Below are positions 52,717 to 55,320 of a stretch of DNA of 64,000 nucleotides, in pieces. Position 1 is the stretch's first letter, and every line of letters starts with the position of its first letter. The stretch covers positions 156,544-220,543 of the forward strand of contig WJJZ01000010.1 in the NCBI GenBank assembly GCA_014729395.1, written 5' to 3'. The stretch is from Candidatus Magasanikiibacteriota bacterium (GTDB taxonomy: Bacteria > Patescibacteriota > Patescibacteriia > Magasanikbacterales > UBA922). A model generated the notes under the pieces. It did not search any database and was not told the DNA's origin. It worked only from the letters and a program-made list of their open reading frames with translations. Made by a program: the position numbers and the translations under genes.

Positions 52717-53262
52717 TTATTTTAATTCAACTTTTCCACCCGCTTCTTCAATCTTCTTTTTCATTTCTTCCGCTTCTTCTTTGGCTACATCTTCTTTTAC
52801 AGCTTTTGGAGCACCATCTACCAATGCTTTTGCGTCAGCCAATCCCAAACCGGTAATTTCTTTAACAGCCTTGATTACAGCTATTTTTGTGTCGCCAGCG
52901 TCTGTTAACTCAACAGTGAATTCAGTTTTTTCCTCTGCAGCGCCTTCACCACCGGCCTCAGCACCACCGGAGGCCATCATCATTGCCGGGGCGGCTGCGC
53001 TTACGCCAAATTTTTCTTCCAAAATTTTGACGAGCTCTGCTAAGTCTAGAACAGACATTTTTTCAATCTCTTCTACAAGAGATTTGAACTTAGCCGGAAC
53101 TTCAACCTCTTTACTCTCTTCTTTTGTTTCTTCAGCTACTTTAGTTTCAGCTTCAGGTTTTTTTTCTTCTTTAGAAGCTTCTTGTTTACCCTTCGCATCA
53201 GTCGAAGGAGTTTTTGTCTCCTTTTCCGCTTTTTCTTCAGCGGCTTTTTTTTCTTCTGCCAT
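52717..53262 (-). CDS. rplL: Ribosomal protein bL12 (L7/L12) with an about 50-aa Lys/Glu-rich N-terminal extension
   Basis: Canonical NTD ([23 protein letters not shown]), Ala/Gly hinge, CTD ([32 protein letters not shown]). Confidence 0.85.
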
Positions 53263-53870: not shown

Positions 53871-54228
53871 AATATATAATTTTAGGCTTATTTACAATAA
53901 AAAACTGTGGTTTTCACCACAGACCTTGAAGTTTCGATAAAAATCGACCTAGAAGACAAAAAATCTTCTTTCTACCTCGGTAGCGTATTTAATCCTTTTT
54001 TGGAAGCTACTGTCTGCGGTTTTTAGTGTTTACATAATAACAAAATTAAAAAATCATGTCAATACCTTGACAAATTAGCTAAAATGTGATAAAAATCAAT
54101 ATCTTTCGCCCTTTTCTATTACAAAATAAGGAGGATTGATGATATAAAGATAAAAATAATTTAACCGGCAGAAGGAAAGATCTTTCACCAACGTGACAAC
54201 TCCTTCTGTACAACAGAAGGAGAAAGTC

Positions 54229-54546
54229 ATGAAAGTGAAGGACAAGTGCGAAGAGTGCGGACGCTGGGTACCGGTCGACGAGATGGCCTACTGGGGACGG
54301 CCAACCTGCAAGGACTGCCTGACACTCTCCATGAGTACCACCACAGACATCTGCGGTGGTTGCGGGAAAGAATTCCCGGAGAGGATGCTCGTATGGGCTC
54401 GTTCTGCAGATGAGTTCCACATCTGCGGAGAGCTGTGTCGGATCGACGGCTGCTGCCTGCGTGTCTGTACCGGCTCGGGTCAATGGTTCTGCCCCCGGTG
54501 CCACCAAAAACACCGGGATGAACTCGAGGCTCGCACCCACTACTGA
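54229..54546 (+). CDS. Cysteine-rich (13 Cys, four CxxC pairs) small protein encoded in an about 60% GC island
   Basis: SD AAGGAGA 7 nt upstream of ATG 54229; CEECG, CKDC, CGGCG, CPRC motifs; strong terminator directly downstream; G/C-ending codon usage unlike the rest of the window. Confidence 0.5.
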   Translation: MKVKDKCEECGRWVPVDEMAYWGRPTCKDCLTLSMSTTTDICGGCGKEFPERMLVWARSADEFHICGELCRIDGCCLRVCTGSGQWFCPRCHQKHRDELEARTHY

Positions 54547-54555
54547 CACACTGCC

Positions 54556-54595
54556 CCGATTCCACCACAGGAATCGGGGTTTTTATTTTTTTTTA
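54556..54595 (+). terminator. Rho-independent terminator
   Basis: CCCCGATTCC-ACCACA-GGAATCGGGG hairpin followed by a long T-run. Confidence 0.7.
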
Positions 54596-54643
54596 TCATT
54601 CCAGCTTTTGACATACTGGATTTCCATGCTATACTTATATAGT

Positions 54644-54880: not shown

Positions 54881-55042
54881 TTTATAATTTTAAAATCTGT
54901 AAATTTCTTAAATCAAGCATCAACTTGATTTTTTGAATTAATAAACAAAAGTTCTTGACTAAACAGACATAAATGTGTATAATTTTGAAAGTTCAAAGTC
55001 GTTTGTTAATTGTTAATTGTCAAGTTGTTAATTGTTGTAAAT

Positions 55043-55114
55043 GGCCCGTTCGTCTAGTGGTTAGGACTCCAGGTTTTCATCCTGGCAACAGGGGTTCGAT
55101 TCCCCTACGGGCTG
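55043..55114 (+). tRNA. tRNA-Glu (anticodon TTC)
   Basis: Acceptor GGCCCGT/ACGGGCT, D arm GTCT-AGTGGTTAGGAC, anticodon stem CCAGG/CCTGG with loop TTTTCAT, T arm AGGGG-TTCGATT-CCCCT, discriminator G. Confidence 0.8.
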
Positions 55115-55293
55115 CAAACGCAAAAGTGTCAACTACAGTTGGTACTTTTGTATTTGTGAATACCCTTGAGGGAATCGAACTGGGGATGGTAAGGGGCGTA
55201 GCCCCTTACTTGTGGAGGAAAGCCTACGAAAACCCGAAGGTTTTCGTGGGAGCGACTGAAAGGAGCGAGTGAGATTTCCCCTACGGGCTGCAA
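55115..55293 (+). other. Highly structured about 160-nt insert followed by a 19-nt repeat of the tRNA-Glu 3' end (GATTTCCCCTACGGGCTGCA)
   Basis: Three clean hairpins (CAAAAGT...ACTTTTG; GGGGCGTAGCCCC; CGAAAACCCGAAGGTTTTCG) and a duplicated tRNA 3' terminus. Confidence 0.55.
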
Positions 55294-55294
55294 A

Positions 55295-55320
55295 AAAAAG
55301 AGGTAATCAACCTCTTTTTA
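55295..55320. terminator. Bidirectional rho-independent terminator
   Basis: A8-AAGAGGT-AATCA-ACCTCTT-T5. Confidence 0.6.

Follow-up and report, generated by a model that had tools for sequence, protein, structure and literature searches.

A four-way-junction element bracketed by tRNA 3' ends and its family behind tRNA genes of Patescibacteria

The analysed DNA (the window, 64,000 nt of a Candidatus Magasanikiibacteriota genome) carries an intact tRNA-Glu(UUC) gene at 55043–55115 of the plus strand, and the sequence directly behind it (whole unit outside the tRNA-borne repeat, 55119–55294) belongs to a large family of structured non-coding elements of Patescibacteria (candidate phyla radiation, CPR). 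The family lodges directly 3' of tRNA genes of any specificity, on the tRNA strand. The element is a four-way junction of ~120 nt, closed by a helix (P1) that pairs a 5' strand with a 3' strand copying the neighbouring tRNA from G53 to the discriminator (nt 53 to 73). Its anatomy, family status and mobility are well supported; for mechanism and function, hypotheses are weighed below.

The tRNA-Glu gene was called by ARAGORN and by Rfam (61 bits) and has 7/7 acceptor pairs, in agreement with an earlier note on this DNA, made from the sequence alone, which had placed an intact tRNA-Glu(TTC) before an insert. It has a G1-U72 pair and a discriminator G at 55114, and CCA is not encoded (CAA follows). 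The G1-U72 wobble recurs in tRNA-Glu genes at many other loci, and in most tRNA genes of the examined contigs C74 is followed by A/T-rich sequence and not by a full CCA. Transcription would start from a sigma-70-type promoter, TTGACT-17-TATAAT (54955–54983, plus strand, 11/12 consensus matches), the sole good promoter-like site 5' of the element. Between this promoter and the tRNA 5' end, TTGTTAATTGTT occurs in two exact copies 22 nt apart (55003–55036).

The 3' end of the tRNA belongs to a 19-nt direct repeat, TTCCCCTACGGGCTGCAAA, found by repeat scan. The proximal copy (DR1, 55100–55118, plus strand) spans U59 and U60 of the T-loop, the 3' strands of the T-stem and acceptor stem, the discriminator and CAAA, and the distal copy (DR2, 55276–55294, plus strand) repeats it exactly; the window holds no third copy at up to 3 mismatches, and two matches were found in 0/100 shuffles. 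The duplication is thus real, as is the mark of an insertion-type event that the earlier note had read in it. Two terminator-like structures accompany the repeats. T1 (55121–55150, plus strand), the hairpin of the tRNA itself, reads CAAAAGTGTCAAC / GTTGGTACTTTTG, then TATTTGTG, and was identified by inverted-repeat analysis and sequence reading; equivalent hairpins stand 3' of the tRNA at sites without an element (empty sites) and in most family members. T2 (55295–55319, no strand assigned) consists of an A-tract, a perfect 10-bp inverted-repeat hairpin and a T-tract, and from inverted-repeat analysis looks like a bidirectional intrinsic terminator, although the consensus terminator scan did not flag it because its stem has few G-C pairs. 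A consensus scan gave no promoter-like site between T1 and the element.

The element proper is the full-length match of a covariance model, R1, at 55162–55284 (plus strand, 105.4 bits, E = 1e-29), the only one in the window; all its parts lie on the same strand. The P1 5' strand, CCCTTGAGGGAATCGAAC (55163–55180), delimited by inverted-repeat analysis, the R1 match and folds, is an inverted copy (83%) of the tRNA T-loop, the T-stem 3' strand and part of the acceptor 3' strand, and is able to pair with the proximal or the distal tRNA 3' copy. It is followed by the P2 hairpin, GGTAAGGGGC-GTA-GCCCCTTACT (55188–55211, from covariation), which has conserved basal G-U pairs and contains GGGGC-GTA-GCCCC as the inner part of its longer stem, and by the purine-rich junction motif GAGGAAAG (55215–55222), whose alignment columns are nearly invariant. 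The P3 hairpin, CCTACGAAAACC-CGAA-GGTTTTCGTGGG (55223–55250, supported by covariation of its lower stem), encloses CGAAAACC-CGAA-GGTTTTCG within a 12-bp stem. P4 (55252–55266), a small hairpin GC-GA-C(UGAAA)G-GA-GC with tandem G-A pairs, was read from the sequence against the family alignments; it lies outside the base pairs of R1 and its length differs across the family. The P1 3' strand, GTGAGATTTCCCCTACGGG (55269–55287, from the R1 match and the covariation of the P1 helices), corresponds to tRNA nt 53 to ~70, apart from GA in the place of U55-C56 and an additional U.

The predicted fold of a 181-nt stretch has −67.4 kcal/mol (z = −4.5), and equal stability was reached in 0/200 shuffles. 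The three perfect hairpins described in the earlier note are all present, although the one at 55121–55150 has two G-U pairs in its stem and is not strictly perfect. The 19-nt copy of the tRNA 3' end followed by a terminator was correctly recognised, including the extra T (GATTTCCCC versus GATTCCCC); the closing inverted T-arm copy at 55163–55180 and the membership in a large family had escaped notice.

Loci around homologues of ribosomal protein L10 were taken from 80 Patescibacteria genomes, and tRNA-Glu adjoins rplJ in ~30 of them. In most of these ~30 orthologous loci (loci are denoted by L and a number) tRNA-Glu is followed by a terminator only, so that the empty site suggested for comparison in the earlier note exists in most relatives, including L002, which has a tRNA-Glu 100% identical to that of the window. 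Inserts of the same architecture stand at the orthologous locus in L012 and L030. The element thus occupies 3/~30 orthologous tRNA-Glu loci and 1/6 tRNAs of the window, and the alternative outcome named in the earlier note, an insert without conservation or relatives with only larger prophages, was not what was found. In each case the 3' end of the element copies the local tRNA-Glu (GTGGCGCTA and GTAGCGGTA in L012 and L030, TACGGGCTG in the window). Among related Magasanikbacteria, tRNA-Glu has repeatedly switched its direction relative to rplJ (L001–L052, about half each way), which implies recurrent small inversions at the rplJ locus.

A motif common to the window, L012 and L030, GAGGAAAG-N3-9-AAACCCGAAGGTTT, matched 116 metagenome stretches; GAGGAAAG was part of this pattern, and its conservation among those matches is partly built in. 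Model R1 was built from 34 sequences, with P1 specified by hand because RNAalifold on plain MAFFT alignments gave P2 and P3 only. A scan with R1 gave 107 matches in 100 loci (52–121 bits), including second copies unseen by the exact pattern, and several copies are present on some contigs. The family motif had no match in 2.9 million viral contigs, and exact searches of viral contigs with the 19-nt repeat and with the P2 hairpin were negative too. The Rfam scan of the insert proposed in the earlier note returned no matching family: at the gathering threshold of Rfam 15 the only passes in the window are tRNA and the L10 leader, and at E <= 10 nothing credible covers the window insert or L081, with tRNAs alone in nine further loci. 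A word-matching literature search found no description of tRNA-adjacent structured RNAs or T-loop insertions in CPR. The window copy shows the three features by which the family is proposed to be recognised, namely a full-length R1 match, the tRNA 3' copy, and a tRNA (here tRNA-Glu) ending at the typical distance, 99 nt, 5' of GAGGAAAG.

The tie to tRNA genes is tight. A same-strand tRNA ends ~95–105 nt 5' of GAGGAAAG in ~90/120 copies, with tRNAs for at least 18 amino acids represented. The copy of the acceptor strand and discriminator has 0–1 mismatch in 63/79 non-redundant copies, and the trailers go down to ~50–60% identity; it is concluded that the tRNA-derived segment is preserved, by selection or conversion, while the flank decays. 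In 6 cases the distal copy alone encodes CCA; the reverse, with CCA at the proximal copy alone, was seen in none. The element boundaries are constant and show no partial gene remnants. Some copies depart from the common layout: the cores of L108 and L191 lack a closing helix of their own and have a tRNA gene immediately on either side, and L084, L087 and L120 have no terminator between tRNA and element. Within 4 kb on either side of ~115 copies no protein family recurs.

The family consensus starts with a 5' strand ending (G)GGAAUCGAAC, then GGGAAA. P2 follows, with ~10 bp, basal G-U pairs and a C-GNRA-G loop in most copies, and leads over UUGCU-GAGGAAAG to P3, in which the lower stem covaries, GAAAACC-CGAA-GGUUUUC is invariant, and AG follows. 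P4 is a short hairpin, often GC-GA-..-GA-GC, with CGA behind it. The 3' strand consists of GUGAGAUU (or GUUCGAAU), the T-stem 3' strand, the acceptor 3' strand and the discriminator; most copies have GA in place of U55-C56, which creates tandem G-A pairs with the 5' strand.

In the model-guided alignment, standard pairs fill 87% of the pair cells, compared with 75% after shuffling and 43–62% with slid partners. Changes on both sides are found in 27/33 pairs, and the observed values were reached by 0/500 shuffles. In P2 (helix 3) 92% of the cells are paired, with double changes at 8/10 pairs. The lower stem of P3 (helix 4) has CG 60 and UA 43 at pair 84/149 and CG 59 and GC 33 at pair 86/147, and pair 38/60 is divided equally between AU (46) and UA (46). 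This alignment was fitted to R1, which favours the structure; the helices are nevertheless taken to be real because of the slid controls and the diversity of the pair types. G-U pairs are abundant (35/64 GU 82, 36/63 GU 79, 80/151 UG 47, and 26 sequences at a fourth position). On the other strand they would be A-C mismatches, and therefore the folded strand is the tRNA-sense strand. For the same reason an RNA of the minus strand was discarded, its UUCG-like loops being outweighed by these mismatches.

The covariation and the lack of open reading frame (ORF) remnants bear out the RNA-like, non-coding character that the earlier note had assigned to the insert; the ORFs drawn over it are spurious and the alignment gaps are out of frame. 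The same data bear on the second suggestion of that note, the scar of a deleted integrative element, by which a conventional integrase-mediated island at the tRNA-Glu 3' end would have decayed to the insert, a remnant without function. The insert does lie between direct repeats of the tRNA 3' end, and tRNA 3' ends are insertion hotspots here (L010 and L132, described below). A scar is nevertheless hardly credible, as sequence and structure are conserved with compensatory changes in 105 distinct copies (core in >100 loci), the architecture is identical at 18 tRNA types (at least 18 tRNA specificities for the core) with fixed boundaries, the relatives show empty sites instead of larger elements, no integrase lies nearby, and ORF remnants are lacking, the alignment gaps not being multiples of three. 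An integrase-mediated integrative element, or the deletion remnant of one (a cis-mobilisable element, CIME), was discarded along the same lines: the direct repeats are present (19 nt here, and family-wide), but integrase, excisionase and ORF remnants are missing, and a specificity for one or a few tRNAs is not seen, with the core at tRNAs for at least 18 amino acids.

The P1 5' strand fits its own 3' strand better than those of other copies (ΔG −14.8 versus −10.7 kcal/mol with swapped partners, p = 1e-7). In L100, L131 (including G-1:C73) and L178 it reproduces the acceptor and T-stem 5' strands in full. In these best-preserved copies P1 is a tRNA 'top-half' minihelix in which the core (P2, GAGGAAAG, P3 and P4) replaces the T-loop.

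The cores are not bound to one tRNA species. The nearest neighbour of a core sits on a tRNA for the same amino acid in 10/81 cases, where 8% is expected, and the three elements at the tRNA-Glu locus have their nearest relatives on tRNA-Met (window), tRNA-Asp (L012) and tRNA-Trp (L030); cores therefore move between tRNA species. The age of the copies can be read from their repeats, which form a continuum from perfect down to unrelated terminators. In the youngest (L138, L182, L168, L137/L193 and L107) a perfect repeat of 49–69 nt starts in the T-loop, takes in trailer, terminator hairpin and T-run, and stops right at the element 5' strand. Intermediate copies (L100, L131 and L098) have diverged but recognisably homologous terminators, and in old ones (window, L012 and L030) identity is left in the tRNA-derived part only. 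This series shows that a new unit comes with the tRNA 3' part, trailer and terminator duplicated in situ, after which the terminator copy decays and the tRNA-like segment is kept. Tandem and truncated units also occur (L138, L098, L090, L113 and L093). Taken together, the tRNA-independent cores, the empty sites, the long repeats of young copies and the tandem or truncated copies point to a mobile, non-autonomous element.

As to how such an element lives, we lean towards a selfish, non-autonomous mobile element acting at the RNA level, which would be co-transcribed with the tRNA and trimmed by tRNA maturation; judged from the sequences, this is somewhat better than an even bet. It comes close to the co-transcribed structured non-coding RNA (ncRNA), freed by tRNA processing, that the earlier note had envisaged. 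Most probably the RNA is transcribed together with the tRNA and matures as a mimic of the tRNA top half; for the function of the core and the mechanism of insertion we infer the following. Having no promoter of its own, the element would be transcribed by read-through or co-transcription from the tRNA promoter; the cores of L108 and L191, placed between two tRNAs, and the lack of an intervening terminator in L084, L087 and L120 suggest that its RNA is made in this way and cut by tRNA-processing enzymes. In standard copies P1, with the copied trailer and terminator, would be the tRNA-like substrate, trimmed by RNase P at the 5' side and by RNase Z, or exonucleases, together with the CCA-adding enzyme at the 3' side. 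New copies might arise by copy-and-join at two generic sequences, the T-loop and the T-run behind the terminator; as the T-loop junction comes first and the T-run junction only downstream of it, the intervening stretch would be duplicated. A polymerase or reverse transcriptase that switches templates could bring this about, as could recombination with a circular or concatemeric intermediate. A factor with its gene elsewhere in the genome probably binds the invariant P3 and junction.

Several observations speak against this reading. Terminator-like T1 usually stands between the tRNA and the element, and read-through is perhaps rare. P1 ends inside the acceptor strand in many copies and reaches the acceptor end in a minority only; acceptor pairing averages 3.2–4.0 of 7 nt against 2.4–2.9 in controls, a weak enrichment, and because it is incomplete in most copies, processing of the RNase P type is not assured. 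P1 pairing shows no rise with copy age (rho = 0.07). The match of the 5' strand to each new tRNA is not accounted for by copy-and-join alone. That P3 and the junction are strongly conserved even between very divergent genomes could instead point to a host function. Folded single-stranded DNA tolerates G-T wobbles too, which makes a DNA-level role conceivable, and a 6.2-kb island in L115, which bears genes for a serine recombinase and a rolling-circle Rep and has a copy on either side, hints at a link to integrating replicons.

The complementarity of the P1 5' strand to the authentic tRNA suggests another role for the RNA. Its target there comprises the T-loop, the T-stem and the acceptor 3' strand, and the element carries a spare 3' copy that sometimes encodes CCA. 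In the minimum-energy folds of all 52 tRNA-plus-element transcripts modelled (52/52) the tRNA 5' acceptor strand is predicted to pair with the distal copy and the P1 5' strand with the authentic T-arm, with a median gain of −10.9 kcal/mol; for window positions 55043–55296 this swapped fold has −109.9 kcal/mol (z = −5.8). Its causes are the 5' strand, which is perfectly complementary to the real T-loop, and the GA substitution in the distal copy, as U55-C56 to GA weakens P1 relative to the real T-loop pairing. On this basis the element could be a host-beneficial, tRNA-specific RNA that invades the T-arm and substitutes or sequesters the tRNA 3' end, with swap or repair of 3' ends, quality control, or a decoy for enzymes or toxins attacking the acceptor end as possible roles. 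The tRNA-derived part that stays identical to the tRNA as the flanks decay, and CCA at the distal copy only (6 cases, proximal only 0), fit such a role, and engineered trans-splicing ribozymes have a similar layout, with a guide, a structured core and a replacement 3' segment. The fold prediction leaves out tRNA tertiary structure and co-transcriptional folding, and the swapped fold may be incidental. Moreover, the distribution is patchy (1/6 window tRNAs, 3/~30 orthologous tRNA-Glu loci), truncated and tandem copies occur, cores shift between tRNA types, several unrelated cores exist within the same bracket, and no catalytic motif was recognised in Rfam scans to E <= 10. With these points set against the modelled folds, a host-beneficial RNA appears rather unlikely.

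In a bolder form, which we rate as unlikely too and slightly more so, the element would be a natural RNA device at the tRNA T-loop, made up of a guide, the four-way-junction core as a candidate ribozyme or ribonucleoprotein scaffold, and a spare tRNA 3' segment. The RNA would swap strands with the tRNA, or cleave and ligate it, the outcome being exchange or repair of the tRNA 3' end; the same chemistry in reverse, with reverse transcription, could spread the element. If true, this would be the first tRNA-targeting RNA mobile element in bacteria of the kind of short interspersed nuclear elements (SINEs) or retrozymes.

The swapped fold also brings both junctions together, as would be needed for an intron in the T-loop, where splicing of a read-through transcript would join tRNA nt 58 to the distal nt 59 and remove what lies from the proximal 3' copy up to the edge of the distal one. 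The homology boundary does fall at T-loop position 58/59 or at 52/53, and the excised piece would equal one repeat unit. We nonetheless consider such an intron very improbable, because the upstream tRNA is already complete, the 'intron' would hold a terminator, a group I intron would need a larger core and Rfam intron models are unmatched; moreover, a splicing endonuclease of the bulge-helix-bulge type is not known from bacteria. A group I intron as such was discarded as well, with the tRNA intact, the element of ~120 nt downstream of it, and no match to an intron model.

The preferred reading, a selfish element mobile at the RNA level, has also to be weighed against a DNA-level reading, in which the element is an integration footprint or landing pad, that is, a folded attachment (att) region or single-strand origin of replicons targeting tRNA 3' ends. 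Single-stranded DNA phages, plasmids or integrase islands would be the replicons concerned, and solitary copies would be left by recombination between flanking repeats. The case for it comes from L115 (1783–8159), where a 6.2-kb island lies between 210-nt, 99% identical direct repeats, each of which is a whole unit, with hairpin and element between two tRNA 3' ends. Genes of the island code for a large serine recombinase, a G2P-type rolling-circle Rep, an APH, an M23 peptidase and a LigT-like protein, and an AbiEii toxin gene adjoins it. Campbell-type recombination of a circle with a homologous segment would yield the long repeats of young copies, GIY-YIG or HNH-like genes are found in other cassettes with the same bracket, and strand-specific folds with G-T pairs are also typical of single-strand origins and folded att sites. 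Still, L115, with its island between two copies, is the only case of island type in ~120 copies and the only recombinase exception near the elements, no recombinase recurs, and 2.9 million viral contigs gave 0 matches. One core at no fewer than 18 tRNA targets is at odds with site-specific integrases, which are target-specific; the element boundaries are constant, without partial gene remnants, and GNRA loops and tandem G-A motifs are typical of RNA. A landing pad is therefore regarded as quite unlikely.

Other cassettes share the tRNA bracket. In L010 (2579–3060) a GIY-YIG nuclease cassette directly follows tRNA-Glu, with 38 nt behind it that repeat the 3' half of the tRNA from the anticodon stem onward; the related L007 is an empty site for this type of cassette, and small GIY-YIG ORFs lie near tRNAs in 4 metagenome loci. 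L132 (14–1110) has a 1008-nt insert after tRNA-Ser(UGA), bounded by a tRNA 3'-end copy and coding for a 237-aa protein with an HNH-like N-terminus (HHICP..CGG...C..C) and no Pfam match. tRNA 3' ends in these genomes are a general insertion hotspot. Non-coding cores of other kinds are likewise framed by a T-stem-like 5' strand and a tRNA 3' copy (L098 630–1010; L119, L149 and L163; L105 and L189): a ~190-nt unit stands in tandem behind a standard element in L098, a second core is of the 'GGGAUGAGAAG' type, and a third is a 96-nt mini version after tRNA-Ser. Such alternative cores in one bracket suggest a superfamily.

Among known systems, the element resembles genomic islands, prophages and cis-mobilisable elements at tRNA 3' ends, in which a direct repeat of the tRNA 3' end likewise brackets the insert and leaves the tRNA intact, occupancy is polymorphic between relatives, and tandem accretion occurs. 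Unlike these, it is a covarying non-coding sequence of only ~120 nt, has no integrase, and uses one core for at least 18 tRNA species; the repeat of a young element is an in-situ duplication of 49–69 nt including the local terminator and not a short att core, and an inverted T-arm copy closes the element. With tRNA-like tags (the tmRNA domain, MALAT1 mascRNA, plant-virus 3' tRNA-like structures and Neurospora retroplasmid 3' ends) it shares an acceptor/T-stem-like helix with discriminator and sometimes CCA, and a cargo RNA borne on a tRNA top half; RNase P, RNase Z and the CCA-adding enzyme could be attracted through such a helix here too. In contrast to the tags, its T-loop is replaced by ~8 further base pairs and a four-way junction, it mimics whichever tRNA adjoins and not one fixed identity, and it is undetected by ARAGORN and by the Rfam tRNA and tmRNA models.

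With non-autonomous, co-transcribed insertion elements such as SINEs and R2 elements (in rRNA genes, with a 5' ribozyme), and with bacterial miniature inverted-repeat transposable elements (MITEs), the present element shares its small size, its multi-copy and non-coding character, a place in or near a highly transcribed RNA gene, target duplications of variable length and a probable dependence on trans factors. It differs in that no reverse transcriptase or transposase partner was identified, the target duplication is much longer and set by the T-loop and the terminator T-run, and the terminal inverted repeat derives from the target. By the criteria for MITEs, it is short, multi-copy and non-coding, takes its inverted repeat from the target tRNA, has the 49–69-nt duplication when young, and has no known parent transposon. 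ncRNAs of tRNA operons (the dicistronic tRNA–C/D box sRNA genes of Nanoarchaeum, and sRNAs of tRNA spacers) use the tRNA promoter and processing for a second small RNA, as is inferred here, and some elements do stand directly between two tRNAs (L108 and L191); unlike them, the family is mobile, carries a partial tRNA copy and has no recognisable guide function. Since it fails the defining tests of tRNA-targeting islands, of tRNA-like tags and of every Rfam family, and differs from SINEs and MITEs in the respects named above, the four-way-junction element bracketed by tRNA 3' ends is classified as a new kind of element.

Further identities were tried and discarded. A tRNA or tmRNA on either strand does not fit, with no ARAGORN tmRNA in the window, no Rfam call over the insert, and the T-loop replaced by helix and core; a complete acceptor-like helix is present in some copies only. 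Of RNase P RNA only GAGGAAAG(UCC) has a likeness, to CR-I; RNaseP_bact_a scores 8 bits against a threshold of 100, and there are several copies per contig. The small self-cleaving ribozymes (hammerhead, twister, twister-sister, hatchet, pistol, HDV-like) have no Rfam match at E <= 10, and in our reading of the sequence the hammerhead-like CUGAGGA lacks the arrangement of stem II and GAAA behind it. P4, which resembles 5S rRNA (GAAC..GAAGUGA-like), has no Rfam match to it. Neither an omega RNA (IS200/IS605) nor a bridge RNA (IS110) is indicated, as no TnpB, IscB or IS110 recombinase recurs within 4 kb on either side.

The surroundings of the tRNA-Glu gene add the following. The best match of the window's L10 protein, in Magasanikbacteria-type metagenome-assembled genomes, reaches 73%, and an exact-protein look-up of three window proteins matched no record. 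On the minus strand an L10 leader (Rfam, 60 bits, 53889–54037) lies 5' of rplJ, and the L7/L12 protein (52717–53262) has a Lys/Glu-rich N-terminal extension of ~55 aa; rpoB was not found directly 3' of rplJ-rplL in the window. A GC-rich island at 54150–54600 (56–60% GC in a genome of ~33% GC) codes for a Cys-rich ORF of 117 aa (54193–54546, plus strand) with its own terminator, for which all Pfam zinc-ribbon matches are sub-threshold and no homologue is present in any fetched locus. The island looks like a recent horizontal acquisition and was set aside as unrelated to the element system.

A large part of bacterial diversity belongs to the CPR, whose genomes are tiny and whose ncRNAs and mobile elements are little known. 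In this poorly known group, a highly conserved, multi-copy structured element, absent from Rfam, is tied to tRNA genes. Model R1 is usable for annotating the family, which accounts for a recurrent oddity of annotation, the partial tRNA 3' ends behind tRNA genes, and the invariant P3 hairpin offers a handle toward a partner protein. Should the element act on tRNAs, tRNA biology would gain a new layer. Should it be mobile and RNA-structured, it would represent a new mode of mobility, set by two RNA landmarks, the tRNA T-loop and the terminator, and a new way of hijacking tRNA maturation.

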